A stretch of 64,000 nucleotides of DNA from positions 40,478-104,477 of IMG/VR virus record IMGVR_UViG_3300047561_000814; one strand, written 5' to 3'. Both the position numbers and the translations under genes were made by a program. The notes beneath the pieces were generated by a model. It was given only the letters and a program-made list of their open reading frames with translations. It did no database searches and was not told the origin of the DNA. This DNA is from a virus. Lineage: Duplodnaviria; Caudoviricetes. Below are positions 27,693 to 52,085 of this stretch, piece after piece (position 1 is the first letter of the stretch; every line of letters begins with the position of its first letter).

Positions 27693-28548
27693 TTACTTGC
27701 CTCATTAACTCAATAAAAAGATCTCTTTTATATTTAATCCACCAACAAACAACTTGGTGCATTTCAGATATATAATTATTTAATAATTCAGGCAACAAAT
27801 CAGATAAAGTTTGCCAATTTTCAACAGTTTTTATTGAATGCTCACCCTGAAATAAAAAATTAAAAAAATCTGTACGTTGCATTTTTGAATCTAATTTGTC
27901 TCCTATTGGTAAACAAAGCATTTCAATTGCTTCATAAAATCTGAATGAATCAATAACCATTGCTCCGCTAGGACAAGGAACAATCTTTGATAAAAACATT
28001 TTATCGTAATATGATTTTGGACTTAAGCCTTCTGCAAAACCATTAGTTGGATTATAAAAAGAATTTGGTATATTAGGCATAACAATTGCAAGTTCTTGCC
28101 TTCTTTGATGTGTTATCTGTCCTGAAAAAAATGCATCATACGATTTATCTTGATACTCTGGTAAATTATTTGGTAAGTGTTGTGGAACACCTAATGCTAA
28201 CTTATTATATTGTGAATGTTTTCTGTGCGGGTATTGAATCCAAATTTCAATATTACTATGTTCTATCTTGTCAACTTTAAATGTGGCACTTTCATCTCCA
28301 GTAATAAATAAAACTACCCTGCTTATTTTATTTAACTCTTTGGATATTTGATCCTCATAATCTACATTTTGTGGTCCAGGAATAACAACAAAGGCTCTAT
28401 CTGTGTTAGGCAAGGTTGTTACCTTATCTGGTTTAATATTATTTTTATTAAAAAATTGTTTTAATAAGCCGTAATCCCATTTATCAGCAGCACAATCTTC
28501 TTTTTTAACTGAATAAAGATATGCGTTAATCATGTTAAAACCTTCCAT
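27685..28548 (-). CDS. exostosin/GT47-like glycosyltransferase
   Basis: FFSGQ..R, CPSG..DSFRFYEA. Confidence 0.6.
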   Translation of the reverse strand: MEGFNMINAYLYSVKKEDCAADKWDYGLLKQFFNKNNIKPDKVTTLPNTDRAFVVIPGPQNVDYEDQISKELNKISRVVLFITGDESATFKVDKIEHSNIEIWIQYPHRKHSQYNKLALGVPQHLPNNLPEYQDKSYDAFFSGQITHQRRQELAIVMPNIPNSFYNPTNGFAEGLSPKSYYDKMFLSKIVPCPSGAMVIDSFRFYEAIEMLCLPIGDKLDSKMQRTDFFNFLFQGEHSIKTVENWQTLSDLLPELLNNYISEMHQVVCWWIKYKRDLFIELMRQVNA

Positions 28549-29147
28549 AATTTTTCTTCTACAATAAGTTTACCAATTAAATCTTCGTCTATGTAAGATG
28601 GGTCATGTACATATGCTATCTGTGAGTTATATTTTTTGATTGCCTCAATTTTATGCTGTGTAAAATTAATTGGAATGTTTTCTAAAGTATGGACTAACTC
28701 AAACTGTTTTAATCTTTCTTTATGTAACTCTGGATGCGACATTCTATATGGCAATTCAGCATATATAAAGTATGTTTTATTAAAACTTTTCATTAAATTA
28801 AAGAGATTGTCTGATAAAAAAACATGGTCTGGATGATGAATACCCAATGGAATATATACATTATCAAAATTTACAATTATATTTTTTATCCAATCAATTA
28901 AAATATCTTCATTTTGTTTTCCATAGACATCATCTAATAAATCGCCATTAATAACCTCAGCATTTATCATGGCACAGGCTTCATCGTGCTCCTGTCTTAG
29001 TTTGATATGTTTCTTATATCCAACTTCATCTGTTGGTATTCCAGCAAATGCAGATGCAATAGTAAAAGAATCCTCATTGTCAATAATATGATCACCTAAT
29101 GAAAAGATTGCGTCATCTGTATGTGGACAAAATATTAAATTATTCAT
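28530..29147 (-). CDS. PIG-L/LmbE-family deacetylase
   Basis: PHTDD, R..E, HPDH, Y.SQ. Confidence 0.8.
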   Translation of the reverse strand: MNNLIFCPHTDDAIFSLGDHIIDNEDSFTIASAFAGIPTDEVGYKKHIKLRQEHDEACAMINAEVINGDLLDDVYGKQNEDILIDWIKNIIVNFDNVYIPLGIHHPDHVFLSDNLFNLMKSFNKTYFIYAELPYRMSHPELHKERLKQFELVHTLENIPINFTQHKIEAIKKYNSQIAYVHDPSYIDEDLIGKLIVEEKLWKVLT

Positions 29148-29847
29148 AAAATAAATGTACCTCATGTTGATAATCTAAAAGAGTTTCCTTATATCCTAAT
29201 CCTTTTATCCATTGTCTAAGATCATGTAATGCCTCATTCCACTGTTGCAACATAAATTCAGGGTGTCCAGATAACCAAATCTTAGGTTTATGCTCTCTAA
29301 GCACCCTCTCAGCCCCTCCTAGGACCCTCCATTCACTACCTTCTACGTCCAAAGAAATGGCGGTAGGTGGTTTAATACCGTGATCATATACACAAGAATC
29401 TATAGTAATCTGACCATAGGTTTCTCCTTCAAGGTATAGTTCTTTGAATCCGTGGGCTATTTCAATAACATCATTGACTTCTGGTGGCCATTCATTATAA
29501 TAAATACGTGAAAGACTGTTTATCTTATCAGATGCAAAGCCAGGTATACATACCATTGGAATTTTTAAGTTATTGGCAGACCAAGTTATAGGAAAATGTG
29601 ACCACACCTTGGGATTTGGTTCAAATAAAACTAATTCTGCGCCCCACATTTGACATAGTGCTGGAAACTCTCCTTCTTCTGCACCCACATAATAAACAAT
29701 ATCTCCATTACCAATATTTTTATGCATTGATTTTAGTCTTAATTTTTCCCATCCATGAGGCTGGTACCAATCTGGTCTATCTGCACGATGTTTTGGCAAG
29801 ATCATTTCAAACTCTCCGTTTAAAACTGCTTTGACCATCTCTGTCAT
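29140..29847 (-). CDS. FkbM-family methyltransferase
   Basis: VGAEEG, FEPNP, LDVEGSE..VL.GA. Confidence 0.82.
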   Translation of the reverse strand: MTEMVKAVLNGEFEMILPKHRADRPDWYQPHGWEKLRLKSMHKNIGNGDIVYYVGAEEGEFPALCQMWGAELVLFEPNPKVWSHFPITWSANNLKIPMVCIPGFASDKINSLSRIYYNEWPPEVNDVIEIAHGFKELYLEGETYGQITIDSCVYDHGIKPPTAISLDVEGSEWRVLGGAERVLREHKPKIWLSGHPEFMLQQWNEALHDLRQWIKGLGYKETLLDYQHEVHLFYE

Positions 29848-30392
29848 TTCATTGCCTCCATAAAATAAAATTCATGTTCTCTTGTATCAAGTTCATAAAT
29901 TTTTTCATTTGATAATACTGTTTCTTTATATTTTACTTTTGTTATATTTTTAAACCCAGAGTCGTGTAGTTTATACTCTAACGCTTTATCTGTTAGTAAT
30001 GATCTTGATGTTGAATACCACGTCAACCAAGCAGAAAAACGTCTATCTAAAATATCTTCAGAGTTGGGGAAAAAGTTAATGTTATTATTTTTATATGCAT
30101 CAAATCCAGAAACAATATCTGGCAAACTAATTCTAACGACACCGCCAGGCTTTAATACACGAATAAACTCTAGTAGTGTTGTTTTAATTTCAAGATAGGG
30201 TATTGCACATATTGTTGCATGTGAAACTATAATATCACATGAATTATCTGGAATTGAATGTAAATTTTTGTGTTCTGTTTTATATTCAGGATCAAGGTCT
30301 ATGTTTATCCAATCAAACGGCTGAATGCTACCACAACCAAAGTTTATGTTCATTGTTGTATCCAATCCATCAAAGATATTTTTGGAGTCCAT
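29844..30392 (-). CDS. SAM-dependent methyltransferase (Methyltransf_11-like)
   Basis: NFGCG, WINID, RVLKPGG. Confidence 0.8.
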   Translation of the reverse strand: MDSKNIFDGLDTTMNINFGCGSIQPFDWINIDLDPEYKTEHKNLHSIPDNSCDIIVSHATICAIPYLEIKTTLLEFIRVLKPGGVVRISLPDIVSGFDAYKNNNINFFPNSEDILDRRFSAWLTWYSTSRSLLTDKALEYKLHDSGFKNITKVKYKETVLSNEKIYELDTREHEFYFMEAMK

Positions 30393-31234
30393 CCAGTTAA
30401 ATCTTTAAACTTGGCATTAGATGCAAGAGTTTCTTGCACCTCACCAATTCTTGACGGTATAAATTTAACATCATTTGAAATGATATTAGCAATATCAAGT
30501 ATAGAGTAATTACTTCCATACCCAATGTTATATACTTCACCAAATCCATTTTCAACCTCAGATGCAAGAATGTTTGCTTGTATTACGTCTGATATGTGAG
30601 TAAAATCTCTACGCTGAGATCCATCTCCAACTACTGTTAGTGGCTTTGATTCATGATATTGTTTTAAAAATAACCCTATTACTGGTGCATACTGTCCTTT
30701 TAATGGTTGTCTATCTCCATAAACATTAAAATATCTAAGAGATATAGTCTTTAATCCGTAAAGGTTGTAATAAACTCTTGCAAGGTTTTCACCAAAAACT
30801 TTAGCAGCAGAGTATGGAGTTAATGGATCAGGCGACTGTGTTTCTTGGTTTGGAAGCAAAGCCTTTTTCCCATAGGAAGAAGATGTGCTTGAATAGATTA
30901 GCCTATTTACCTTGTTAACCCTACAAAGTTCAAGAACATTGGCTGTTCCTACTGCGTTTGATTGAATAGATTTTTTAGGATTTAATATTGCTGGCTGTAT
31001 TCTTGCATCAGATGCTACGTGAAACACGCAGTCAACATCTTTAAAGAGTGGTGCAATTAAGTCATAGTCACAAATATCATACTTATAGTTTTGTGCTTTA
31101 TCATTCCAATAGAATTGCTCATGACATTCTGCAGACTCATCATCAATACAAATAACATTGTGACCAAGACTAATTAACTTATCAACAAGGTTTGATCCAA
31201 TAAAACCAGCACCACCAGTAACTAAATATTTCAT
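30350..31234 (-). CDS. NAD-dependent nucleotide-sugar epimerase/dehydratase
   Basis: VTGGAGFIGS, YSAAK, LRYFNVYG, RDFTH. Confidence 0.92.
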   Translation of the reverse strand: MKYLVTGGAGFIGSNLVDKLISLGHNVICIDDESAECHEQFYWNDKAQNYKYDICDYDLIAPLFKDVDCVFHVASDARIQPAILNPKKSIQSNAVGTANVLELCRVNKVNRLIYSSTSSSYGKKALLPNQETQSPDPLTPYSAAKVFGENLARVYYNLYGLKTISLRYFNVYGDRQPLKGQYAPVIGLFLKQYHESKPLTVVGDGSQRRDFTHISDVIQANILASEVENGFGEVYNIGYGSNYSILDIANIISNDVKFIPSRIGEVQETLASNAKFKDLTGWTPKISLMDWIQQ

Positions 31235-32190
31235 TTTATATTTAAGGTTTCTAATATGCTTGCCCATCTATGAACATAGGTGTGTTCTTGTTTAGTTCTT
31301 TCATGACCATTAAATCTAATTTGCTCCCGTTCAAGATTAACATTAAGATAGTGATCTATCTTATTTTTTAGATCTTCAAGATTACCGTGTTCATAGAATA
31401 CAATATCATTACCATCTTCAAAGTATTCTTCAAGTCCTGTAATGCGAGGGTAAATAGTAAAACCACCACGACCAGTACTCTCAAACAACCTATCACTAGT
31501 ATAGTAAGGATAGTTAAAGTTAATGTTTAAACTATCACCTATTGCTATCTTGCTTTTTGCATAGATACGATTAAGCGCTTCTCCACGTACAGTTCCAGTG
31601 TCACCATCTCCACCAACATGTAGGAATCTTTTACCGTATGTGTTTCTTAAAAAGTCTATTAATTCTGGACGGTATTTATGTTCATGATGATAACCTTTAC
31701 TACCAACAAAGATTATGTCATGCTCAAAGTTGTCTGGATCATAATCTTGATGTAGATAACACTCTTTATCATATACACCAGCAGGTAAGAAGTGTCCTCT
31801 AACTTCTGTATTTTCATTAAACCAATCACACATTAACTTATCTGTAGCAAAAAAGTGACCTATACTCGTGTAGAAATCATCATTCTTTAAATCTTTTTCA
31901 CGCTCAATTCCAAACCACAAATCCAAGTGATAAGTCATAGTTGGTATGCCAGCAGACTTTAATTCTTTTAGTACATCAGTCATAGATCTAGATCCTGGAG
32001 TCTGCCATCTATGTGTGTGTACCCAGATGAATAGATCAGAGTTTAATGATTTGTTTAATATTTCTGTGCTACCTGCTTTTTTTTCTTGCAGTTTTTGCAC
32101 GGTATGCCCAAGAGATTCCAAAGACTTAGCATGATGATTCTCACTACTATAAGGCACTTCAAAGTTGCCAAGAAAAACTATGTTAGCCAT
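31231..32190 (-). CDS. CgeB/Glyco_trans_1_2-like glycosyltransferase
   Basis: DIIFVGS, SDRLFES.G.G, HTY.HR. Confidence 0.8.
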   Translation of the reverse strand: MANIVFLGNFEVPYSSENHHAKSLESLGHTVQKLQEKKAGSTEILNKSLNSDLFIWVHTHRWQTPGSRSMTDVLKELKSAGIPTMTYHLDLWFGIEREKDLKNDDFYTSIGHFFATDKLMCDWFNENTEVRGHFLPAGVYDKECYLHQDYDPDNFEHDIIFVGSKGYHHEHKYRPELIDFLRNTYGKRFLHVGGDGDTGTVRGEALNRIYAKSKIAIGDSLNINFNYPYYTSDRLFESTGRGGFTIYPRITGLEEYFEDGNDIVFYEHGNLEDLKNKIDHYLNVNLEREQIRFNGHERTKQEHTYVHRWASILETLNIK

Positions 32191-32416
32191 TTATTTGTTC
32201 GTTTTCCCCTCTAGCAATAGCAGCAGATGCCTCAAAGGCTTTTTGTGTTCTACGAGATTTCAATAAACCTTTTGACTTCCAAAGTGGGATGGTTGCTTCA
32301 ATGTCTTTGGCTATCTGTTCTCTTATTTCTTTAACAGTAAAAACAACAAAGTTCCAGACATCTTCTTTTTGTTTGTCGTTAAGTTCTTCAGTCCAGTTAG
32401 TCATCTTCTTCCTCAA
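32183..32416 (-). CDS. hypothetical protein
   Basis: ORF overlapping the GT start. Confidence 0.5.
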   Translation of the reverse strand: MRKKMTNWTEELNDKQKEDVWNFVVFTVKEIREQIAKDIEATIPLWKSKGLLKSRRTQKAFEASAAIARGENEQING

Positions 32417-40228: not shown

Positions 40229-40664
40229 TTTTTGGGCTCTCCACTCCTACTAGTTTGAGTTCTTCAACTGTACCACATTGAGGGCACTTTTCCAAATCCT
40301 GTTCATCAAAGGCATCTCTGATAGTATTATCAGGGTCTTCAAATTCAGCACCACAGTTTTCACAGTAGAACCAGTTATGGCTAATCAAGACCTGAATAGT
40401 CGTATCAGGTGGACAAGGAACCTCAGTGACAAAGTATCCTATTCTATTTACAATGTGCCAGCCGTTCCAGATGTAGGAACCACCGTCGTCACCATCACCA
40501 TACATCCAGATATAGGCAGGGTCTTGTTCTTTTACAAACTCAACCTCTTTATCGTAGGTCTCAAACATATGCCCATCAAAACTAGCATTCTCATCTAGAT
40601 GATTCTTAATAGGCTTATAAGTGTCAAACCACTCATCTTCCGTCATCTCAATAAAGTTATCCAT
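40215..40664 (-). CDS. early protein with C-terminal zinc ribbon
   Basis: VNRIGYFVTE; CENC..CPQC. Confidence 0.6.
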   Translation of the reverse strand: MDNFIEMTEDEWFDTYKPIKNHLDENASFDGHMFETYDKEVEFVKEQDPAYIWMYGDGDDGGSYIWNGWHIVNRIGYFVTEVPCPPDTTIQVLISHNWFYCENCGAEFEDPDNTIRDAFDEQDLEKCPQCGTVEELKLVGVESPKNANL

Positions 40665-40929
40665 TTTTCTTAGTCCTATCACTAATAGCAAATGCTAACT
40701 CATATGTTAATTGATATACAACTGAATAGGCGTCTAGCATGCCTTCCCAATATTTACGTTCCATTGAATCCATTGCTTCTTCTGATTCATCTTCAGCCTC
40801 TTGGGCAAGAGTTAGTTGCTCCTCTGCTTCTAGCATGAAGTTCTTTAGTTCACCATGAAGAATATCAGTACCTGATTCTCCTAGGTCTATTAGTTTCTGT
40901 AGTCGTGGTGCTAGGGTCATGTTATTCAT
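40657..40929 (-). CDS. hypothetical early protein
   Basis: Overlapping ORF. Confidence 0.55.
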   Translation of the reverse strand: MNNMTLAPRLQKLIDLGESGTDILHGELKNFMLEAEEQLTLAQEAEDESEEAMDSMERKYWEGMLDAYSVVYQLTYELAFAISDRTKKNG

Positions 40930-41067
40930 TCTTTAATCATACCCTCTGCCACTGACAAATAGTGACGGGACACATGAATGGCACCCTCAAGATAAGGAAC
41001 AATGCTATCAGCACCATCCTCATTCTCTAGGTCTTGTTCAAGGCTAATCGCATGAATCTTAATATAC

Positions 41068-41292: not shown

Positions 41293-41544
41293 TTAATTAT
41301 AGGGGTTGGTGTTGATTTTAACAAGTCCTGTAGGTGTGACCTTGCTCACATCTGTAATGATAGGGACAAAGGCATCTGACAACCCAATATTAACTAAATT
41401 AGGAGATCCACAAGAACACCAGCCTCGCCAGTCTCTGATATTTTTCAGGGTAGTAATCTCCATCAAGGCATCACAATCATTACATACATAATCATACTTA
41501 GTCCACATACTTAGTCTCCATACACTTATAAATATTTGTATCAC
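41293..41544 (-). CDS. zinc-ribbon early protein
   Basis: CNDC..CSCGS; the true start is probably the internal MWTKY. Confidence 0.5.
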   Translation of the reverse strand: MIQIFISVWRLSMWTKYDYVCNDCDALMEITTLKNIRDWRGWCSCGSPNLVNIGLSDAFVPIITDVSKVTPTGLVKINTNPYN

Positions 41545-41983: not shown

Positions 41984-42202
41984 TCAAGCATATTCCTTTT
42001 CATAGGCAGGAAGTGAGGTTACTACCAATTCTAACATTTGTGCAGGGTATCTGTCAAGTACCCAATTAAGAGCCTCTCCAGCAGTTTTAAAATCAGAGGC
42101 GGTGCTACTGTATCCATACCCCTGGATAGTTGCTTCCCAGCAATCAATCCCACCAGGAGATACGGCATAGTTCATTTCATAGATTTCTACTTTTAGGGTC
42201 AT
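41984..42202 (-). CDS. hypothetical early protein
   Basis: TTGACA promoter directly upstream. Confidence 0.55.
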   Translation of the reverse strand: MTLKVEIYEMNYAVSPGGIDCWEATIQGYGYSSTASDFKTAGEALNWVLDRYPAQMLELVVTSLPAYEKEYA

Positions 42203-42322
42203 GTATTAATTATCCTACAAACTGGGAAAAATGTCAAGTATCCGTAATGAGAAAATGGGAAAAATATCATTTCAACGTAATAAGATTATAACAAAAATGT
42301 TATCAAACTCGGGGCCCCTTTG

Positions 42323-42396: not shown

Positions 42397-42403
42397 AAAA
42401 TAG

Positions 42404-42433
42404 TGAGCAGTTTTAAATCATGCTCAGGATTTT
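42404..42433 (-). ncRNA. pseudoknot motif copy
   Basis: AAAUC-CUGAGCAU-GAUUU-AAAAC-UGCUCA, between the DUF932 stop and tRNA-Asp. Confidence 0.75.
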
Positions 42434-42437
42434 TTTA

Positions 42438-43454
42438 CTAAACTAGTTGCAAAGTATTTTGCACAATAGTTAGCAAACGATTTTTCTCTGCATTGGTAGC
42501 AGGGTCAAATCCAGAAGCAGCAGCAAACATGCTTTCGCCATTTGCACTACGAGCAGAACGATACCAGTCTAAACGCTCAGTTAGCGCATTAAACGCACCC
42601 CAAGCATTACCACTAATCATTCCGTTAAATTCACCAGTGTAAATATCGTTAATCATATCTACCTTGTTTTCCCATTTCTTTACAGCACCCTTAGTATCTT
42701 TATCAGGCTTAGGGTAAGCAGCAAGAATAATGTTATTGAAATCTTGTGCGGAGATTTCTTTTGCTATCATGGCATGAGCCATCTTATCAAATTCGTCCAT
42801 GTAAGAATTAGCCATGCCTAGTGCCTGACGAGCAACAGCAATTTTGCCCTCAGCGGTTTGGGTATGACGGATTTTGAAAGATTGCTTAACGCCATCTTTC
42901 TTGCGTGTGCGGTTAAGTGCAACATTAAGAGTATTAGCACACACAACACGAACTGGTGTTATGCTTGCTTGAATAGCGATTGAACCATCATGTGATGTGT
43001 TGATGAGTAAATAAGTCTTTACAACATCAGCAACGCCATTAGGGTCTAATACGGTTTCACGCTCTAATGCAAGAGAGCCAAATACCACACGCCCACCACT
43101 AATTGAACCAGCGGTTTCCCAACGCCCACCACCATCAAGAATGTTATCGCCAAAGGCAAATAAATCCTCATTTTGTAGTGGAACATAACGCTGACCAACA
43201 ATTCCCAAAACATCAGTTTGAGATTTATCAGTAGGGTTAGTGCGAACAACATATTGATATTGTTTATCAGATACTAGGGTAGTGGGGATTTCTAAATCCT
43301 CTAGTCTAACATTCCAATTATTAAGATTAGCAGCAACAAGCATTTCACTTGTATTTTTTTCAGTATCAAATACTGTGCCTAGATTATGCCAAGCAGGTTC
43401 TCTAAATGAAGCAAAACTTGCTACGCCATTTTGAGTTTCTAAATCATGAGCCAT
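42438..43454 (-). CDS. DUF932 / TIGR03299-like phage-plasmid protein
   Basis: PAWHNLG, Y.PLQN, ETAGS..GG, NTSHDGS, TPVRVVCANTL, W.AFNA.TE. Confidence 0.85.
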   Translation of the reverse strand: MAHDLETQNGVASFASFREPAWHNLGTVFDTEKNTSEMLVAANLNNWNVRLEDLEIPTTLVSDKQYQYVVRTNPTDKSQTDVLGIVGQRYVPLQNEDLFAFGDNILDGGGRWETAGSISGGRVVFGSLALERETVLDPNGVADVVKTYLLINTSHDGSIAIQASITPVRVVCANTLNVALNRTRKKDGVKQSFKIRHTQTAEGKIAVARQALGMANSYMDEFDKMAHAMIAKEISAQDFNNIILAAYPKPDKDTKGAVKKWENKVDMINDIYTGEFNGMISGNAWGAFNALTERLDWYRSARSANGESMFAAASGFDPATNAEKNRLLTIVQNTLQLV

Positions 43455-43480: not shown

Positions 43481-43509
43481 AGTCTAGCAGTCATGACTGA
43501 CAATGTCAA
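43481..43509 (-). promoter_or_regulatory. promoter with PafBC/RecA-NDp-type motif
   Basis: TTGACA-t-TGTCAG-tcatgactgc-TAGACT. Confidence 0.75.
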
Positions 43510-43592
43510 CTAGGACTGGGGAAAATGGTTTAATCTTCTTAAATGGTATAAATCGGACATTTGGGGCCCCCCGAGTTTTTCTGCAGAAATAT

Positions 43593-43621
43593 AGAGCCTT
43601 TTTAAATCATGCTCAGGATCT
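43593..43621 (-). ncRNA. pseudoknot motif copy
   Basis: AGAUC-CUGAGCAU-GAUUU-AAAAAG-GCUC. Confidence 0.7.
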
Positions 43622-43679
43622 TTGGCCCCTTATTTATACTGGCTGTACCGTCGCCAGTTTTGATAGCCCCCTATCAAAT

Positions 43680-44159
43680 TTAGTAGTGGTCCTCTAATGA
43701 AACTTCGTCCACAGTTAAGTCTGCGTCGTAGTCATATGAATTAAGTTCTGCTTCAATTGAAACATTGCTTAAATCAAAGTCAGCAATTTCTGACATTGGG
43801 ACGCTGATTGTTCCGCTGAATGAAACTGTACCTTGTACTTCAATTTCCTTGACTGGATTAACACCAAAGAGTTCACATAGCGCTACAAGAACTTCTTCTT
43901 TAGAATAGTTAGGGTCATACCATTCTACGATATTGTCTTCAAGTTGACTTACTGTTCCCTGCAGGCTACGCAATAAATCTTCTTTAGCACGTGCACTATG
44001 AAGGTCCCATTCAAGTTCTGTTACCTTGGATGTTAAATATGTTGGCTCTTCAGGAGCAGCATATGTTCCCGCAATAGCCTTGTACGTTACAAGAAGATTT
44101 GGGTTGTACGGTACTTCTAGTTTATCAATTGTTACTGCATCGCTGATATTGGTTGACAT
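43680..44159 (-). CDS. hypothetical early protein
   Basis: Start moved to MSTNIS because the promoter lies at 44197-44218. Confidence 0.65.
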   Translation of the reverse strand: MSTNISDAVTIDKLEVPYNPNLLVTYKAIAGTYAAPEEPTYLTSKVTELEWDLHSARAKEDLLRSLQGTVSQLEDNIVEWYDPNYSKEEVLVALCELFGVNPVKEIEVQGTVSFSGTISVPMSEIADFDLSNVSIEAELNSYDYDADLTVDEVSLEDHY

Positions 44160-44196
44160 TGTGGGGCCTCTTCCTTGTTGTTTGGTTATTAATCTA

Positions 44197-44218
44197 ATCA
44201 TAGCAGCGGTCACTGACA
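44197..44218 (-). promoter_or_regulatory. promoter with PafBC/RecA-NDp-type motif
   Basis: TGTCAG-tgaccgctgc-TATGAT. Confidence 0.72.
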
Positions 44219-44266
44219 AATGCAAGTTGTAAGCCTAGGGTTCTTAATTAGTCTCACATAATGAGA

Positions 44267-44282
44267 TGTGATTTAGATCACG
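44267..44282. promoter_or_regulatory. CRP/GlxR-like box
   Basis: TGTGA-tttaga-TCACG. Confidence 0.6.
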
Positions 44283-44316
44283 TTGCCTCGGGGGATTTTT
44301 GCAGGGCAATTAAAAA

Positions 44317-44345
44317 TAAGCCTTTTTGATTCATGCTTAGGAATT
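44317..44345 (-). ncRNA. pseudoknot motif copy
   Basis: AUUC-CUAAGCAU-GAAU-CAAAAAG-GCUUA (compensatory changes in both stems). Confidence 0.72.
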
Positions 44346-44414
44346 TACACCTCTTACAGTTAGTGCGAACTGTGCTCTATAGTATTTCTATGATCGCCCT
44401 AATCAGCCTGGCGA

Positions 44415-44442
44415 AAGCAGTTTGAAATCATGCTCAGGATTT
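44415..44442 (-). ncRNA. pseudoknot motif copy
   Basis: AAAUC-CUGAGCAU-GAUUU-CAAAC-UGCUU. Confidence 0.7.
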
Positions 44443-44446
44443 TTTA

Positions 44447-44617
44447 TTATTTAGTTGTGCTTACCATAGCAAGACGACGAGAGCCGTTTGCTAGTTGTAA
44501 TGAAACCCTAGTAAGTTTAGAATTAAGTGGTGAGAACTTTACAATTCTACCTGTAATTCCAGTTTTGCTAGTGGTGAATAAATCACCTAGTTGATATGTG
44601 TATCCGCCTAGTGTCAT
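44447..44617 (-). CDS. 56-aa SH3/KOW-like protein (below cutoff)
   Basis: MTLGGYTYQLGDLFTTSKTGITGRIVKF..; aagga RBS; own TTGACT-17-TAGACT promoter. Confidence 0.65.
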   Translation of the reverse strand: MTLGGYTYQLGDLFTTSKTGITGRIVKFSPLNSKLTRVSLQLANGSRRLAMVSTTK

Positions 44618-44711
44618 GATTTTCCTTTTCTGTTTGGGTGGTTTGCTTACTTACTTAGTCTAACATTTTTTAGGGGGGAAGTCAATTACCCTTCCCCACC
44701 TAATTATCTAA

Positions 44712-45134
44712 TTAAAGATAACGAGCAATAGCGTTATAGGTGCTAGTGCTAACTGTTTCCTCGTCTGTCATTTTAAGGATACGGATAGCGTTTTCCATTT
44801 CCTCTTTTTGCTCACGATAAGTGTGCTGATGTAGTTGCTCAAAATTACGCTCAGGCTCTTTAGGGAACTCGCCTTCCTTAACTGTAATATCAAAATCAAC
44901 ATTAAGGTTTTGGCTGTATGAGCGATAGTTGGTGCGTAGGTTTTCTGCCTTAGCAACATTAGCGATAGCAAAAACAAATAATTCTTTTTTCCAAGCCTCT
45001 ATTGCGGTTTGGAACTTTGCTTCGTTTTCGTCTTGCTTTTTATAGTTAGCCTCTAACTCTGCTAATCTATTTGTTAAGGCTGTAATAACCTTAGCAGTAG
45101 CGATTTTTACGCTGATGGGTTTGCTTCTTGCCAT
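44712..45134 (-). CDS. coiled-coil early protein
   Basis: aagga RBS. Confidence 0.65.
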   Translation of the reverse strand: MARSKPISVKIATAKVITALTNRLAELEANYKKQDENEAKFQTAIEAWKKELFVFAIANVAKAENLRTNYRSYSQNLNVDFDITVKEGEFPKEPERNFEQLHQHTYREQKEEMENAIRILKMTDEETVSTSTYNAIARYL

Positions 45135-45181
45135 TTGTTTTGGTTTCCTTTTCGTTTGGTGTAGTTGATGGGGGTTTGAGT

Positions 45182-45211
45182 TGAGCAGTTTTAGTTGTCA
45201 TGCTCAGGACA
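45182..45211 (-). ncRNA. pseudoknot motif copy
   Basis: UGUC-CUGAGCAU-GACA-ACUAAAAC-UGCUCA. Confidence 0.75.
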
Positions 45212-45230
45212 TTTAGCCACTAGGCTAAGA

Positions 45231-45398
45231 CTATGACTTTGCTGTCCAAGTTGTCCAGCGAGTTGCGCCATTAACCTCTAACTTAACACGAACATTACCA
45301 TTTGCTTGTGGCACGATTTCTGTAATTGTTCCAGTTGCCTTTGACTTTTGGCTTGTGTAGGTATCTCCTACTTTGTAGATTGCGTTTGCTACTGACAT
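45231..45398 (-). CDS. 55-aa SH3/KOW-like protein (below cutoff)
   Basis: MSVANAIYKVGDTYTSQKSKATGTITEI..; aaggag RBS. Confidence 0.65.
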   Translation of the reverse strand: MSVANAIYKVGDTYTSQKSKATGTITEIVPQANGNVRVKLEVNGATRWTTWTAKS

Positions 45399-45500
45399 GG
45401 TTCTCCTTTGGTTGTTTTTGCTTACTGTATAAGTCTAACATTTTTTGGCTAAAAATACAAATCGTATTTCTAATAATCTCATATTTTGAGATGTGATATC

Positions 45501-45516
45501 TGTGATGTATATCACA
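45501..45516. promoter_or_regulatory. CRP/GlxR box (perfect)
   Basis: TGTGA-tgtata-TCACA. Confidence 0.65.
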
Positions 45517-45619
45517 CCACGATACCGAAACGGACAAAACGGACATTACTTATGCCCAAGACCTGCGAATAAGACCATGACAAATAAGATAGTTAGAATT
45601 GTTAATTCCAAGATTACCC

Positions 45620-46348
45620 CTATTTTTTAGATGATGAAAAAACTATGTCGCTCTTAGAGTATACACACAATCCGCAAGAAACGCAAGCAGAGCCAGCGCT
45701 TGATATAAGTGGAATGGCTTTTAAGTTTTCAGGACACTTAGCGCCAGGTTTATTAAATAACTCTTTCATATCTGCTTGACCTATTGCAAAATTCTTTGCA
45801 AGGTATGCAAGGCGTATGCCATGATCTTTTTTAAGACTAACGCCTATCTCTTTATTCTCGCTGTCTGTAGAATAGTATAAAGATAGATTAGGAATATTCT
45901 TAAGCATTAGTGCTGCAGACTGTACTCTAGTGTATACCCAAAACTTTATATCTGTATTGTTAAGGATGATATATTGCCATGCTCTAGTGTACTTATCATT
46001 AAAGAAGTCACCGTCCCAGTGAATGCGAAATAGCAATGGCGCATTTTTCTTTTCACAATCTTTTTTAAAATCAGCAATCATGTTTTCTAATAAATCAACC
46101 ATGGTAGGTTCATCTGCGTCTTTCAATAACTCCCAATTGTGTAGGAGGTTAGTCTTTACTCCTTTGAATAACTTTTCAAGTTTTCCCGCGTAGCAAACAC
46201 TTTCACAAATATTAGTGGCACCAGGGCATGAGTAAGCCTTTCCAGCAGGGAGGCCGAATGTGTTCGCAATTGCGGCTTGCTTTCCATTTTTTGTAACAAG
46301 ATTAGCAACCTTTCTATCATGTGATCTTTTTAGTTGTGGTGTTGTCAT
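45620..46348 (-). CDS. GP88-family Cys-rich protein (mycobacteriophage gene 88-like)
   Basis: CPGA..C...CYA, FRIHWDGDF, WVYTR, CP..C..C.LC. Confidence 0.75.
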   Translation of the reverse strand: MTTPQLKRSHDRKVANLVTKNGKQAAIANTFGLPAGKAYSCPGATNICESVCYAGKLEKLFKGVKTNLLHNWELLKDADEPTMVDLLENMIADFKKDCEKKNAPLLFRIHWDGDFFNDKYTRAWQYIILNNTDIKFWVYTRVQSAALMLKNIPNLSLYYSTDSENKEIGVSLKKDHGIRLAYLAKNFAIGQADMKELFNKPGAKCPENLKAIPLISSAGSACVSCGLCVYSKSDIVFSSSKK

Positions 46349-46429
46349 ATGAAAATTCTAGCAGAATATGGGAAAAATATCAAGTCGCCTTAATTGGTAC
46401 AAATCGGACAAATCGCCCTCGGGCGCCTC

Positions 46430-46681
46430 TTAGAGCAACATCATTAAATCAAATTGGTCGTATTCACCAACTTGAATTATTTCACTTTCACCAAAATCAT
46501 TGACAACTTCTAAAGTGTATCCGTCAGGTAGTGAAATTATATCTGCAATAGACACAACCTCATCGTCAATTAAAATACAATCATCAACCATTAACTGTCC
46601 TGCAGTTAAGATATCAACTTTTACGTAGTCCACAATCTGAATAGTATCATCATTTTCTAGATCAATCACATTACTCCTCAA
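46430..46681 (-). CDS. hypothetical acidic protein
   Basis: ORF. Confidence 0.5.
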   Translation of the reverse strand: MRSNVIDLENDDTIQIVDYVKVDILTAGQLMVDDCILIDDEVVSIADIISLPDGYTLEVVNDFGESEIIQVGEYDQFDLMMLL

Positions 46682-46752
46682 TTTCTGCTAGTGTTTCCCA
46701 TAGAATAGGTTCTAGTATTAGTGCAACTGCGTCTAACTTATCTTGCAAGTCC

Positions 46753-47037
46753 TTACTCATCTACTGGCTCAATAAACCAATGCAGGTGGTGTCCATCAAC
46801 AATGAATTTTGCTGGTGCTTCTGACTGACCACGCCAAGTAATCTGAAAGTCATTTACTTTTGGCAAGGTAATCATACGGTCATAGTCCTCATCATAGTAA
46901 GCGTCAATAGCCTCAATACAAGGTTGCACCATTTCAGAAGGCACTGGTGGATAATGATTACCACGCAAGTGATATAGAATCTGAGTTTCTAAATCTAATA
47001 CTGAATCCTTGATACCTAGTGCTGTTACGGAACCCAT
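46753..47037 (-). CDS. conserved actinophage hypothetical protein
   Basis: HLRGNHYPPVP..HHL. Confidence 0.65.
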   Translation of the reverse strand: MGSVTALGIKDSVLDLETQILYHLRGNHYPPVPSEMVQPCIEAIDAYYDEDYDRMITLPKVNDFQITWRGQSEAPAKFIVDGHHLHWFIEPVDE

Positions 47038-47038
47038 A

Positions 47039-47248
47039 TTATTTCACACTCACATTTCCGTTGCGATAGAAGGTCTTAGTATACATCTTACCCGTAGGGT
47101 CTGACAAGTTGTAGGTTGCGTATTCTTTAGCGTCGCCAAAGTCCACACACTTAGTCCAAGCATTGACTGCCTCTAGCATATCGCTAACTCGCAGGGTATG
47201 AATTAACTCTCCATCATATGAAGTAGTAAGTGAATAAGTATATTCCAT
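47039..47248 (-). CDS. hypothetical early protein
   Basis: aaggag RBS. Confidence 0.6.
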   Translation of the reverse strand: MEYTYSLTTSYDGELIHTLRVSDMLEAVNAWTKCVDFGDAKEYATYNLSDPTGKMYTKTFYRNGNVSVK

Positions 47249-47445
47249 TATGCGTTCTCCTTAGTAGAAAATAAAGCGTGGGCAGTAAATAATTCATCAG
47301 CAGGGATATTGTAAGGATTACACTCACACGCCCATACATCGTAGTCTATCTCATTACCTGCAAATTGCCAACCTTGTCCGTAGCACATGTCGCAAGCAAG
47401 TATTTCCATTATGGCATTTTTAACTTTTCCCATTAGCAATACCAA
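47248..47445 (-). CDS. small Cys-containing early protein
   Basis: CDMC..CECNP. Confidence 0.55.
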   Translation of the reverse strand: MVLLMGKVKNAIMEILACDMCYGQGWQFAGNEIDYDVWACECNPYNIPADELFTAHALFSTKENA

Positions 47446-47584
47446 TCCTCTCCTAAAGCCTTTTCAGCACACCAATCAGTATAGTGCTTATCGCACATAG
47501 TTTCAACATTAGAGTTAATCATGTTGATATTATTTTTTGTAGCGTAACAAATATTACACATAGTTTTCCTTTCGTTATATCTTT

Positions 47585-47606
47585 ATCCTATCAGACTGGA
47601 CTGACA
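47585..47606 (-). promoter_or_regulatory. promoter with PafBC/RecA-NDp-type motif
   Basis: TGTCAG-tccagtctga-TAGGAT. Confidence 0.72.
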
Positions 47607-47644
47607 AAATCCAATTAGACACGAAGAATCTGGACAATCTGGAG

Positions 47645-47718
47645 TGTGATCTTAACCACATAATGGCCCTGTGGATAACCCTGTGGAAAACGCCCCGAGG
47701 ATTTTAGAACAAATGTTC
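47645..47718. promoter_or_regulatory. cluster of CRP-like, DnaA and LexA-like boxes
   Basis: TGTGAtcttaaCCACA 47645-60; TGTGGATAA 47670-78; TGTGGAAAA 47682-90; GAACaaatGTTC 47707-18. Confidence 0.6.
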
Positions 47719-47745
47719 GGACAGTTTTAGATCGTGTCCAGGATT
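47718..47745 (-). ncRNA. pseudoknot motif copy
   Basis: AUC-CUGGACAC-GAU-CUAAAAC-UGUCCG (P2 GGACA/UGUCC, compensatory). Confidence 0.72.
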
Positions 47746-47750
47746 TTTAT

Positions 47751-47897
47751 TTATACTTTTAGCGCTTTACGCAATTCATTTCGCAATCTGCGAATTTCTT
47801 TATCTTGTGCAACATTTTGTTTATAAAACAAAAACATTACCAACATTGAACCGCTTAGCGCAATTATTACAGCAAGCAAATCTAAATTAGTTAACAT
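47751..47897 (-). CDS. 48-aa membrane peptide (below cutoff)
   Basis: TM plus short coiled coil. Confidence 0.5.
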   Translation of the reverse strand: MLTNLDLLAVIIALSGSMLVMFLFYKQNVAQDKEIRRLRNELRKALKV

Positions 47898-48078
47898 TTA
47901 CAAATCCAATCTCGTCAATACCGCAAGCCTTTTCAAATCTTGCGAAATCAAAGTTTTCGTTATCTGCTTTGAACCAATCAGCAAAAGTATCTACCAAATC
48001 CTCATAAATAGTTTGCGGAATATCTTGTGCAAAACTTTTAAGAATATTTGCGGTTTGTATGTAGTCTTTTCTAGTCAT
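47887..48078 (-). CDS. small early protein
   Basis: MTRKDY..A..DN..FD..RF..AC motif. Confidence 0.7.
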   Translation of the reverse strand: MTRKDYIQTANILKSFAQDIPQTIYEDLVDTFADWFKADNENFDFARFEKACGIDEIGFVNVN

Positions 48079-48226
48079 TAGTTAGCCTCTCCGCTAGTAA
48101 ATAAATCGCCTAATGCAAAATCGCTACAATTACATTTTTCTACATCATAGTCAAGGTCGTTGCCCCAAAAGACAAGACCAACACCATTACACTCATCACA
48201 AGGAAAAGACATTACAGAATTTATCA

Positions 48227-48412
48227 TTATACTAACGCCTTTCCTCTAAGTGTGCCACTAACCCCAAGCATATCGCAAGATAATTTAACAGATACGCCAA
48301 CAGGTAATTGGTTTGGATAAGTGCTTATGAATTGAGCAACCGCACCCTTAGAAGGTAGGTTGATTTTTTTTACAGACCCATTATAGGTTTCTAGTTTTAC
48401 AGTATAAGTCAT
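48227..48412 (-). CDS. small early protein
   Basis: aaggtgg RBS; first gene after the promoter. Confidence 0.6.
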   Translation of the reverse strand: MTYTVKLETYNGSVKKINLPSKGAVAQFISTYPNQLPVGVSVKLSCDMLGVSGTLRGKALV

Positions 48413-48447
48413 TTCTGACCACCTTTCGTTTGTTTGTTTATATGGTA

Positions 48448-48469
48448 AGTTTAGCAGGTTTGGCAGACA
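48448..48469 (-). promoter_or_regulatory. promoter with PafBC/RecA-NDp-type motif
   Basis: TGTCTG-ccaaacctgc-TAAACT. Confidence 0.65.
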
Positions 48470-48507
48470 TTATCAAATTCAAATTCGGACATTTAGGACA
48501 TTGGGGG

Positions 48508-48523
48508 TGTGAGATACCTCACA
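48508..48523. promoter_or_regulatory. CRP/GlxR box (perfect)
   Basis: TGTGA-gatacc-TCACA. Confidence 0.65.
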
Positions 48524-48754
48524 ACGCCCCTTCGTTAAATAAGCCTATTTCTAACTCTAGGAGAGTTTCAGGCGGTATATCTGAAAGATCAAGCCACCCC
48601 GCACCCTCAGAATTCATGGTGAAAATTTCTACATAACCCATTATTTAGCCACCTTCCAATTTAGCACGATACAACTATCGCACATAGCAGGGATACCACG
48701 CTTAGAAGCATAAGCGGTATTTGTATAGCAAAACTCACAAAGTTTTTTTATCAT

Positions 48755-48958
48755 TTACTCACCTACCTTCACCGCAATTGTTGCGTATTTATTTTTTATG
48801 CTAGGAGTATTTATAGCAATTAAATATGCTTGAGTATTTTCTCCATACCAAACATCAGATTTTTCGGCAGAGATAATCTCACCTGAAAAAAATCTTGAGT
48901 TAGAGCGATAGGTTTTACCAATTAGTAAATCCTCTATTGTGTATAGTTTAGTAGCCAT
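48755..48958 (-). CDS. small early protein
   Basis: Start moved to MATKLY, downstream of the promoter. Confidence 0.6.
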   Translation of the reverse strand: MATKLYTIEDLLIGKTYRSNSRFFSGEIISAEKSDVWYGENTQAYLIAINTPSIKNKYATIAVKVGE

Positions 48959-48996
48959 TAGTGGCACCTTCTTTCTTGTTATTTTCTTACTAGGTA

Positions 48997-49018
48997 AGTC
49001 TACCAAAATTATCAGACA
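48997..49018 (-). promoter_or_regulatory. promoter with PafBC/RecA-NDp-type motif
   Basis: TGTCTG-ataattttgg-TAGACT. Confidence 0.65.
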
Positions 49019-49279
49019 TTTACAACCTACTAGCCAGTAATCTTAAATAGTGAGACGCTCAGCGGTGTGATATGCCCCACAAAATTTCTGTGATCTTAAA
49101 CACATTGTCCTTAAAGCGACACGCCGTCTGCGCCGAGTCAACTCGGGTTTTTTATTTCAATTTATCTTTATGTTTTATTTTTCTTGAATACTTTTTTTTA
49201 TTTGGAATTGGTGTCGCAGCATTACTACGACGCAATTCTTGAATACGAATTATTTTATTTTTTATTTCTTTTAACATTT

Positions 49280-49471
49280 TTATTCCCCTCTACTTTCTGC
49301 ATCTGCTTCCCAATCAGAAAGCCAAACACGATAAGCAATTGGGTCGCAGTTAAATAAAATTTCACTAGCAGTAAATGTTAAATAACCAATCTTTGTGTCT
49401 GGATAACACTCGTCAAGCATTTGATCAAATTCTTCTTTGATTTCTAATTCTTTTTCAAATTCTGATTTCAT
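49280..49471 (-). CDS. small early protein
   Basis: FDQMLDECY..DPIAYR motif. Confidence 0.65.
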   Translation of the reverse strand: MKSEFEKELEIKEEFDQMLDECYPDTKIGYLTFTASEILFNCDPIAYRVWLSDWEADAESRGE

Positions 49472-49671
49472 TTATTTACTCCCAACAATTTGAGCAAGTA
49501 ATTATATCTTGCTCATCAAATAAATCGCTAGAAACTTTGTTATCGCATAAGCGACAATTAAGAGTTATCATTTATATTCTCCTTTTAAGATAAGTTCATC
49601 TAGCATTTTTGCTAGAGGGTCTTGATTTTCATCAAGGTAGTTATTTAATTCTAACTGTTTAACAAAGTCTA

Positions 49672-49854
49672 TCATTTAGACACTTTCCAATCTGACCACA
49701 TAGATAGTCTTTCTGGGTCAGTATCGTTATACCAACGCTCAATATTATTTTCGCAAATTTCACAAAAAGTGAATTGCTCATCATTAACGTCTGAGATAGC
49801 AGACTTATTTGGAACGTGTGATTTACACACTTGGATTATTACATTTGAATTCAT
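49672..49854 (-). CDS. small early protein
   Basis: aaagga RBS; CxxH/CxxC. Confidence 0.6.
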   Translation of the reverse strand: MNSNVIIQVCKSHVPNKSAISDVNDEQFTFCEICENNIERWYNDTDPERLSMWSDWKVSK

Positions 49855-49904
49855 TTGAATTCCTTTCTAGTTTGAGAACCTTTCTCAACTTTCTTTATAC
49901 TAGA

Positions 49905-49926
49905 AGTATAGCAGGGGGGTCTGACA
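49905..49926 (-). promoter_or_regulatory. promoter with PafBC/RecA-NDp-type motif
   Basis: TGTCAG-acccccctgc-TATACT. Confidence 0.72.
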
Positions 49927-49966
49927 TTTACTCACCAGTAAGTAGGACAAAATGGACATTGTGTCT

Positions 49967-50032
49967 TGTGATGTAGGTCATGTGGATAACTTACGCTCAA
50001 AATTCAATGTGATGTGCGTCATGTGGATAACT
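49967..50032. repeat. 25-bp direct repeat: CRP-like box overlapping a DnaA box
   Basis: tgtgatgtaggtcaTGTGGATAAct (49967-91) and tgtgatgtgcgtcaTGTGGATAAct (50008-32). Confidence 0.7.
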
Positions 50033-50138
50033 GATCACGAGGTCGGGCGTGTCGGTCCCCGAGTCAATGTCCGATTTGCACCATTTGTCATGTGGTGCAT
50101 ATCACTAATTACATGCGTGTTATTCACGGCGTGTCGTC

Positions 50139-50167
50139 TTGACTTTTAGGCTTATCTCTGCTATAAT
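50139..50167 (+). promoter_or_regulatory. near-consensus sigma-A promoter
   Basis: TTGACT-17-TATAAT with an extended TG; GGCGTGTC just upstream. Confidence 0.8.
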
Positions 50168-50194
50168 TCCATTATACAAAAAAATAAAGAAGCA

Positions 50195-50326
50195 GACTCA
50201 ATGAGCCTAGCGATTAAGCCTCTACAAGAGGATGAGCCTAGCAAATAAGTGAGTCAGAGATTAGATAGCCTCAATGAGCCTACCAAATAAGCCTAGCAAT
50301 AGGATGAGCGTAGCAATTAAGTGAGG
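50195..50326 (+). ncRNA. candidate structured ncRNA with four 18-nt motifs
   Basis: ATGAGCCTAGCAAATAAG-like at 50201, 50232, 50274 and 50304, enclosed by covarying stems. Confidence 0.6.
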
Positions 50327-50363
50327 TATCTCACACCACGACACTAGAGGAAAGTCCCCAAAA

Positions 50364-50385
50364 TGTCAGCGGTATCTGGTAAGAT
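50364..50385 (+). promoter_or_regulatory. promoter with PafBC/RecA-NDp-type motif
   Basis: TGTCAG-cggtatctgg-TAAGAT. Confidence 0.7.
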
Positions 50386-50443: not shown

Positions 50444-50605
50444 ATGACTAACACTATATATAACGAAATCGCTGATGAGTTTGGCTCATCTGCTCTATCT
50501 ATTAACTATCCTGAGCCTGAGATTAGTATTACTCGTGCTGCTCAGTTGTTAAATCAAATGGGTTTTGACAATGCTAAAGCCTATCTATTAGCAGGGGGTC
50601 GCTAA
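50444..50605 (+). CDS. small early protein
   Basis: Start moved to MTNTIY; aaagg RBS. Confidence 0.55.
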   Translation: MTNTIYNEIADEFGSSALSINYPEPEISITRAAQLLNQMGFDNAKAYLLAGGR

Positions 50606-51160: not shown

Positions 51161-52085
51161 TTTATTTTTAAAATTACATATCATACATCTAAGAAAAATA
51201 TTCAGATTTTCTCAAAATGAAAATTTTTTCAGATTTAGGCGGGTATAGAAATATTTGCTGGATTAAGTTCTGGATAAGTAGTAAAGAAATCTACCTGTAT
51301 TTCCTGTATTGCCCACTTGCTTATGTATGTTAAAATCATTGCTGTTATAAAAAGTCTAAAGATATATTTGCTAAGGGGCATGCTGATAGTATATAATATT
51401 ATTATGTGCCAACACGTATATAAATACACAAATCCTGGGCTATGCCGATATTGTGGTTTGGACACCCACGATACAGATTGGGCTAAACAAAATAAACTAT
51501 ACGCAGAGTACAGGGAAAAAGTTGGATTCTTCTTCAACAATAATGCCTGGTGGTCAATCTAGCCAAAATATGGTAAGATAGATATATGTACTTACTAGGA
51601 CTAGAAATTCGCAAAGACCGTAGAGAAAAACAATACTCTATGAAGACTTGTTTTGGCTGTAACAAAATAATGTGGGTAGCCCAAGAAAACATAAGAGTCT
51701 ATAACTATTGCGGTAGTTGCAAATGAAACAACAAATCCTAATCTCTATCATCATAATTGGTTTGGCAGCACTGGTATGGCTATTCTAGACAACCTTGAAG
51801 ACTCTATGGCAGATGACGACGGTATGCCAAGTCAAAAAGTTACAGATGCTATCAAAGAAATGCTTGAAGATCCAGAGCACCATAAACTCATGGAACGATT
51901 AAAATACATGGAGGACCATGGAGTCTAAATATCCTATACCACCTTACAGACATACTCCAAAAGGTTTGAACATAATAAATGAAACAACTAAATCAACAAA
52001 GTGTTGTGATGCCTGTGAATGTGGTAATTCTGAAGAAGAAAAGTTTAATAAACTTATGGAGACTCAGTCATCATTTGAAGAGTAG

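Follow-up and report, generated by a model that had tools for sequence, protein, structure and literature searches.

Within the last 64 kb of the 104,477-bp virus record IMGVR_UViG_3300047561_000814 (the stretch analysed here, hereafter the window), an arm of 43 small open reading frames (ORFs) on the minus strand carries repeated copies of a bipartite 22-nucleotide (nt) motif, TGTC(A/T)G-N10-TAnnnT, in which a six-base box is followed after exactly 10 nt by a -10 hexamer. Seven intergenic copies, which an initial annotation had proposed as phage promoters with the geometry of PafBC (RecA-NDp) DNA-damage promoters, were recovered at the same coordinates and on the same strands when the sequence was re-read. 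They are listed here as box promoters 1 to 7, each with its match to the -35 hexamer TTGACA and the gene behind it.

43481-43502, minus strand: box promoter 1, TTGACA-(1 nt)-TGTCAG-N7-cTGc-TAGACT, -35 match 6/6 at 17 nt; followed by the DUF932 gene (42438-43454)
44197-44218, minus strand: box promoter 2, TGTCAGTG-N8-TATGAT with a TGc extended -10, -35 match 3/6; followed by a 159-amino-acid (aa) ORF without family match (43680-44159)
47585-47606, minus strand: box promoter 3, TGTCAGTC...cTGa-TAGGAT, -35 match 3/6; followed by a series of small Cys-rich ORFs (47433-47561 and onward)
48448-48469, minus strand: box promoter 4, TTGATA-(1 nt)-TGTCTG...cTGc-TAAACT, -35 match 5/6; followed by ORF 48227-48412 and the small ORFs after it
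48997-49018, minus strand: box promoter 5, TGTCTG...tTGg-TAGACT, -35 match 4/6; predicted to drive ORF 48755-48958
49905-49926, minus strand: box promoter 6, TGTCAGACCCCCCTGCTATACT, -35 match 2/6; first promoter of the minus-strand arm, predicted to drive ORF 49672-49854
50364-50385, plus strand: box promoter 7, divergent partner of promoter 6, -35 match 2/6; predicted to drive a 53-aa ORF (50444-50605)

All seven face the next gene, as first annotated, with 23-58 nt and a Shine-Dalgarno sequence between the end of the -10 and the ATG. Three further matches in the window lie within coding sequence.

40936-40957, minus strand: candidate eighth box promoter, TGTCAGTG-N8-TATGAT, within the 3'-terminal part of the preceding ORF
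47085-47106, minus strand: possible box promoter, TGTCAGACCC...GGGTAAGAT, inside ORF 47039-47248 and 47 nt before ORF 46753-47037
51931-51952, minus strand: box match with no gene behind it

At 40936, the ATG of ORF 40657-40929 follows the -10 by six nt, a leaderless geometry, and homologues of this box are among the 25 of 465 boxes in related phages that have an ATG 5-8 nt past the -10. Because of this geometry and its retention in relatives, the site is probably an eighth, leaderless promoter, and the phage probably has eight or more box promoters rather than the seven first counted. The match at 51931 is probably due to chance, since no gene follows it.

The window holds 10 matches to the motif against 1.62 expected, a number reached in none of 100 shuffles, and the whole record holds 12 (1 forward, 11 reverse) against 1 for a reversed control pattern. 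When the spacer was varied from 6 to 15 over the whole record, spacing 10 returned 1 + 11 matches, and spacings 6-9 and 11-15 returned 0-5 per strand. Enrichment against shuffled intergenic sequence, a check that the initial annotation had called for, was measured between 40215 and 51109: genes were marked and only the 2,797 nt of intergenic DNA were shuffled, giving 7 observed matches against 0.24 expected and a maximum of 2 in 500 shuffles (0/500 reached 7).

Conservation and anatomy of the box promoters

With the phage DUF932 protein as query, 492 related stretches were found in IMG/VR, and 80 of these loci form the conservation set used here. At spacing 10, these 80 contigs contain 427 matches on the gene strand versus 59 on the opposite one; the remaining spacings from 5 to 16 gave at most 41 on the gene strand, except for 115 at spacing 16. 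The 10-nt spacer claimed for the seven sites is locked in relatives as well, and as many as 14 boxes occur within 17 kb of a related contig. In a sequence logo built from 245 non-redundant instances, A occupies the fifth box position in 91%, and the T and G of the extended -10 are present in 74% and 84%, respectively; apart from an A-rich stretch just 5' of the box, the logo shows little else. The upstream region of the DUF932 gene, which includes box promoter 1, is kept in 45 unique relatives.

The same preference emerged from a set built blind to the box: 584 non-redundant extended -10 sites, each preceding a ribosome-binding site and start codon. Sixteen nt upstream of their -10, the hexamer was TGTCAG in 151 cases, TGTCTG in 15 and TGTCGG in 14, with the next commonest hexamer in 11, and TGTC began at that position 188 times compared with at most 25 times at any other position. 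Among the 166 TGTC(A/T)G promoters of this set, the -35 match was 3/6 or lower in 84 and 5/6 or higher in 46.

Every one of the seven box promoters has TGn (an extended -10) directly before TAnnnT, and the box starts one base past the end of a -35 hexamer placed at 17-nt spacing. The best TTGACA matches at 16-18 nt (6, 3, 3, 5, 4, 2 and 2 of 6 for sites 1-7) compare with a random mean of 2.56; a usable -35 (at least 4/6) is present in 3/7, a generic sigma-70 scan was passed by only 2/7, and the TGTCTG form occurs in 2/7. Counted from the -10, the box would lie at about -28 to -23. PMC8635444 gives the in vivo PafBC motif as tGTCgg(N10)tA(N3)T, with the sigma A -10 as its 3' part, and describes a helix-turn-helix (HTH) domain of PafB whose contacts span -23 to -28 and which recognises the GTC triplet, PafBC placed between sigma region 4 and DNA, and promoters without a -35, a mechanism that the authors liken to AsiA and MotA of phage T4. 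The geometry of the phage sites, their predicted box position included, is the published one, and this part of the original class assignment stands. Membership of a pure PafBC class is not supported: because 7/7 have an extended -10 and 3/7 a usable -35 at 17-nt spacing, the promoters are, on their predicted elements, hybrids. Relatives of the early genes are represented among the RNA contigs of four metatranscriptomes, although such contigs cannot show transcription starts and may reflect DNA carry-over.

A motif in so fixed a register with the -10 could also do without any trans-acting factor, as a spacer- or discriminator-like feature for the sigma A holoenzyme or as a remnant inherited through duplication of promoter cassettes. 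The arm's promoter regions are in part repeated cassettes (families D3, D6, D7, D13 and D20), and canonical promoters of the same arm, described below, would work without a box. However, the flanks of the seven boxes differ, box and register are kept over hundreds of diverged relatives, and the same box is found at LexA-linked damage genes in host-type genomes, which together make this explanation very unlikely.

Phage affiliation and the host-side box

The phage has a G+C content of 35.6% and encodes a WhiB-like protein (22054-22338, plus strand). WhiB is an actinobacterial-host marker, and we take the host to be an actinobacterium because the phage carries it; 190 of 192 WhiB-matching phage records are named for actinobacterial hosts. 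The best matches of the DUF932 protein (~53% identity) are in Streptomyces phages of about 130 kb, whose WhiB proteins are 40-46% identical to that of the phage, and the 543 DUF932-matching phage records are mostly actinophages. Other phage genes include those for RecA, DnaB, primase, class II ribonucleotide reductase, portal and terminase, and the window contains seven tRNA genes. Parts of the stretch are present in 24 public runs from 18 studies, labelled freshwater, lake water, aquatic or plain metagenome; a megablast of the promoter region against the phage collection gave no match. We describe the phage as a virulent actinophage that is common and widespread in freshwater and has a low-G+C host. 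The mycobacterial setting assumed in the initial annotation is ruled out by the 35.6% G+C and the freshwater source, so the reporter experiments in M. smegmatis that it proposed would be heterologous.

The host side was examined in stand-in genomes chosen by their properties, rather than in a proven host, using a 301-genome sample of the phylum and a 351-genome sample of a second class (tallies include some genomes flagged unpublished). A WYL domain, as found in PafB and PafC, was present in 257 of the 301 genomes, and in many genomes of this sample the box far outnumbered a reversed control. In most of the 351 genomes the box was likewise enriched over the reversed control (for example, 98 versus 14, 102 versus 8 and 104 versus 8). 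All 26 genomes of 1.0-1.7 Mb in the second class had WYL proteins, and 22/26 had a pafBC-like tandem WYL pair ~1 kb apart; G+C at those WYL loci was 44-63%, and 44-49% in 19 of the 22 tandem-pair loci. In another class, 34 of 40 WhiB-bearing genomes of about 1 Mb had a WYL protein.

The 44 of 301 genomes that are small, AT-rich and without WYL were initially counted as evidence against PafBC, and this was dropped, as they lack WhiB: it was found in 0/10 with the family model, in 3/40 in another tally and in 0/30 small genomes with the phage WhiB protein as query, so that these genomes are not plausible hosts. The box stood upstream of recA in 0/26 small AT-rich genomes and in only 2/5 high-G+C WYL-positive controls, which renders that comparison uninformative. 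A search for the host through the phage WhiB in genome contigs was also abandoned, having returned only short contigs, probably of phage origin, in unrelated metagenome-assembled genomes (Saccharibacteria, Acidimicrobiaceae, Chitinophaga). When 20 kb of phage DNA was compared with the 301 phylum genomes, only tRNA-level matches of 75-85% were found, except in phage-like contigs of one genome (G001), and the phage WhiB was 19-41% identical to the WhiBs of the 1-Mb WhiB-bearing genomes, with no host signal.

One stand-in, G941, is a complete contig of 1,409,984 bp with 46.2% G+C, in which pafB (WYL and WCX domains), pafC (HTH_PafC and WYL domains) and tatC lie in a row; pafB-pafC-tat is also the mycobacterial gene order. 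It contains 18 boxes, and ten of these are fully intergenic even though 95% of the contig is coding (P = 2.9e-9). Eight of the ten intergenic boxes are TGTCAG and two TGTCGG, none has TGn or a -35 (mean match 2.8), and at five of them a gene starts 7-8 nt past the -10. The genes behind them encode an SNF2 helicase, a NERD-UvrD helicase, a TPR protein, a C5 cytosine methylase, DUF6504, a DnaQ-like exonuclease and two ORFs without family match. Directly after two of the ten stands CGAAC-N4-GTTCG, which we take to be a LexA-type box.

Similar boxes precede damage and repair genes in other genomes that bear pafBC. In three high-G+C genomes, a TGTCAGACCCCC...TAnGGT box lies before recA (the ORF N-termini match RecA ORFs found with PF00154), and the same TGTCAGACCCCC box lies before an SbcD-like and a DnaQ-like ORF, both identified by eye. 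The first 13 nt of phage promoter 6, TGTCAGACCCCCC, are identical to the recA box of those three genomes. G023, which combines 35-38% G+C with a pafBC pair, has TGTCAG boxes in front of DUF763, an AddB-like gene and dprA. Judged from these genomes, streamlined actinobacteria keep pafBC, and the predicted box of their lower-G+C members is TGTCAG-N10-TAnnnT, as in the phage.

The genes behind the G941 boxes also bear on the possibility that host PafBC binds the phage boxes chiefly to be titrated, which would blunt repair or defence triggered by single-stranded DNA (ssDNA), with the promoters running on their extended -10. With seven to fourteen boxes on every phage genome, replication would bring their number above the roughly ten host sites, and some relatives concentrate up to 14 within 17 kb; three of the G941 genes (SNF2 helicase, NERD helicase, C5 methylase) are defence-like; and the phage promoters look self-sufficient, given TGn in 7/7 and a usable -35 in 3/7. 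A decoy, however, would not need its boxes in exact register with a -10, and every phage box faces a gene. Titration is moreover compatible with activation, neither excluding the other, and as the main role of the boxes we judge it unlikely.

Several side observations concern these genomes. Seven of the ten intergenic G941 boxes cluster within 25 kb (G941:C1:431900-460600, loci L266-L268), among genes for the SNF2 helicase, the NERD-UvrD helicase, the TPR protein, the C5 methylase and small ORFs, in what looks like a defence-like island under damage-alarm control. A small IscA/HesB-like gene for Fe-S cluster biosynthesis in the phage (35728-36054) is the closest phage-G941 match found, with 58% protein identity and 78% nucleotide identity over 105 nt to the G941 gene, and is probably a host-derived auxiliary gene. 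Beside the terminase, a 553-aa ORF (9083-10744) without a Pfam or PHROG family is 40% identical over 479 residues to a G941 chromosomal gene, which lies ~5 kb from a tRNA gene 81% identical to the phage tRNA-Asp. In three WhiB-bearing genomes of ~1 Mb (G424, G372 and G313; loci L181-L183), the intergenic box TGTCAGTyTGAACCACTACACT and the leader of ~30 nt behind it are both conserved; next comes an ORF that by eye is an EamA-type transporter. The leader may be riboswitch-like and controlled by a PafBC-type promoter.

Candidate readers of the box

The initial annotation had recognised no WYL- or PafBC-like gene in the window, and wider searches came back equally empty. The phage has no WYL domain and no sigma-70 region 2 or 4, and tblastn with PafB and PafC from two genomes revealed no PafB/PafC-like ORF (best E 0.82). 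No HTH family was found among the 43 ORFs of the minus-strand arm, where the sole PHROG named 'DNA binding protein' is a ferritin/Dps-like protein. Families of T4-type activators or anti-sigma factors were absent from the 43 arm ORFs and 30 larger ORFs elsewhere, a search that did not scan every ORF or use the MotA and AsiA models by name.

A phage protein of no known family might nevertheless read the box, in the way that MotA/AsiA act at T4 middle promoters or as a shut-off repressor, and the likeness of the box to that of PafBC would then have arisen by convergence or chance. Of the 43 small arm ORFs, most have no family match and several are Cys-rich and zinc-ribbon-like; the box-less canonical promoters of the arm could express such a factor first; and further conserved elements (ATGTCCG, GTGA-N6-TCAC) in these intergenic regions show additional regulators at work. 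Set against this are the absence of any recognised HTH, sigma, WYL or PafB/C-like gene and the extent of the likeness, since the phage box equals the host damage box in its core, its upstream A/T bases and its spacing, and shares even the ACCCCCC spacer found in one host class, which would be hard to reach by chance. We consider a phage-encoded reader improbable.

The best-supported explanation, which we favour with modest confidence, is that the boxes are read by host PafBC, inferred as the reader because the phage has no such factor of its own. The sites would then be promoters of an early-type arm of small genes, used by the housekeeping RNA polymerase of the presumed host. Each would combine an extended -10 (TGnTAnnnT), workable with a poor -35, and a box, wTGTC(A>T,G)G, separated from the -10 by exactly 10 nt and serving as a -26 element for the HTH domain of PafB. 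According to PMC11804915, PafBC is activated by binding ssDNA; activated PafBC would sit between sigma region 4 and the box, as in sigma adaptation. Single-stranded DNA from DNA entry, replication or host attack would in this way increase transcription of the phage genes, with the extended -10, sometimes together with a -35, providing basal expression without PafBC and activated PafBC adding more.

A number of observations weigh against reading by PafBC. With an extended -10 in 7/7 and a -35 of at least 4/6 in 3/7 (6/6 in one), the phage promoters could fire without an activator, whereas the host boxes have neither element and are mostly leaderless, compared with phage leaders of 23-58 nt. In some relatives the DUF932 promoter has kept TTGACA or TTGACT but altered or lost the box, which indicates that the box is dispensable there when the -35 is strong. 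Streptomyces relatives lack the box (0 + 1 matches in the first 16 kb of the BE-cluster phage NootNoot), and the TGTCTG form is found in none of the ten intergenic G941 boxes. Similarity between the phage and G941 is weak (tRNAs 78-81%, proteins 30-58%, G+C 35.6% versus 46.2%). Finally, damage-dependent early genes are not an obvious design for a virulent phage.

Activation and dilution may also go together: in this abundant phage lineage the early promoters would be copies of the host's ssDNA-alarm box, and PafBC, which turns on host repair and defence-island genes in response to foreign or damaged DNA, would both activate phage counter-measures and be diluted by hundreds of phage boxes. We put this forward tentatively and with more doubt than conviction; if true, it would be the first hijack by a phage of a WYL-domain alarm regulator through promoter mimicry, without a factor of its own.

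Compared with PafBC (RecA-NDp) promoters, the phage sites share the bipartite motif, the invariant GTC, the exact 10 nt to the sigma A -10, the predicted box position and the occurrence of the box at damage and repair genes of the pafBC-bearing genomes studied here. They differ in lying on a virulent phage genome; in a fifth base that is A (91%), T or G instead of G; in having an extended -10 throughout and in some cases a good -35; in their leadered transcripts, as predicted; and in a factor that would come from the host. Like T4 middle promoters, with a MotA box at -30 and a -10, they have a box between -35 and -10 that would replace or supplement -35 recognition by the primary sigma factor, but T4 supplies two proteins of its own, whereas none was recognised here and the box belongs to the host. 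Strong early promoters also form arrays in the host-takeover modules of large virulent phages, for example in the terminal redundancy of SPO1 and in the early arm of BE-cluster Streptomyces phages; the arm resembles them in its many small one-strand genes, all having a promoter of their own and a hairpin element downstream. The BE-cluster phages also provide the closest relatives of the DUF932 and WhiB proteins, but differ in the box, as NootNoot illustrates. The regulators CapW, BrxR and DriD similarly link DNA damage or phage attack to transcription through ssDNA-sensing WYL proteins; those are host circuits acting on host genes, whereas here the target sites are on the phage.

So far, PafBC and sigma adaptation have been known solely from the damage response of the host. 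By titles and abstracts, the literature on PafBC with phage, mycobacteriophage or Nanopelagicales describes no phage promoters with a PafBC box; a paper cited in PMC12848934 reportedly ties pafBC to mycobacteriophage resistance, on the host side. If the phage does use the box, a virulent phage would time or boost its early genes through the host's ssDNA sensor, without activators of the T4 kind. The defence-like genes (helicases, a nuclease-related protein, a methylase) in the PafBC regulon of streamlined freshwater actinobacteria would then point to a regulatory contest between host and phage, and the box would be a sequence signature that ties uncultured phages to actinobacterial hosts.

Further elements of the arm

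Four predicted promoters of the arm are canonical and lack the box.

46355-46383, minus strand: TTGATA-17-TAGAAT with TGc, repeat families D3 and D7; leaderless to the GP88-family gene (45620-46348), with the ATG 6 nt past the -10
42209-42237, minus strand: TTGACA-17-GATAAT; leaderless to ORF 41984-42202, with the ATG 6 nt past the -10
44657-44685, minus strand: TTGACT-17-TAGACT with TGt; predicted to drive ORF 44447-44617
45432-45460, minus strand: TTGTAT-17-TAGACT with TGt, repeat family D4; predicted to drive ORF 45231-45398

The leaderless promoters at 46355 and 42209 fit an actinobacterial host, where leaderless transcripts are habitual. Other repeated elements of the arm are as follows.

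49927-50363: divergent region between promoters 6 and 7, repeat families D5, D11, D12 and D14
43554-43560, 45540-45546, 48486-48492, 49953-49959 and neighbours: ATGTCCG(A/T)TTT element
44268-44281, 45502-45515, 48509-48522, 50321-50334 and 41336-41349: GTGA-N6-TCAC palindromes
42398-42434, 43587-43623, 44311-44347, 44408-44444, 47712-47748 and 45198-45221: 37-nt hairpin element

The region between promoters 6 and 7 contains four GTTATCCACATGAC-type repeats and two tandem units of 72-73 nt with GAGCCTAGC cores; the repeats look like iterons, and the region may be an origin or a control region. The ATGTCCG(A/T)TTT element, ~50-70 nt 5' of the -10, occurs sometimes as a pair with a 10-nt period and shares TGTC with the box. 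Upstream of DUF932 it is kept in at least 90% of the 45 unique relatives, more strictly than the TGTCAG box, while across the whole window ATGTCCR is not enriched (9 versus 11.3 expected). GTGA-N6-TCAC palindromes, which are CRP/GlxR-like, number 5 against 0.71 expected (0/100 shuffles reached 5); four of the five sit between genes of the early arm, ~60-110 nt 5' of promoters, and the palindrome is kept upstream of DUF932 in relatives. GAAC-N4-GTTC occurs once, at 47707, which is not above chance (1 versus 0.43).

Copies of the 37-nt hairpin element (CCTGAGCATGATTTAAAACTGCTCA on the gene strand) follow five or six arm genes and may be terminators or RNA-processing sites; terminator-like sites in the region are in excess (17 versus 6.2). 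Elsewhere in the window, a minus-strand block of glycosyltransferase genes with an NAD-dependent epimerase/dehydratase, followed by four tRNA genes, occupies 25897-32416, with sulfotransferase-, ferritin/Dps- and kinase-like genes nearby.

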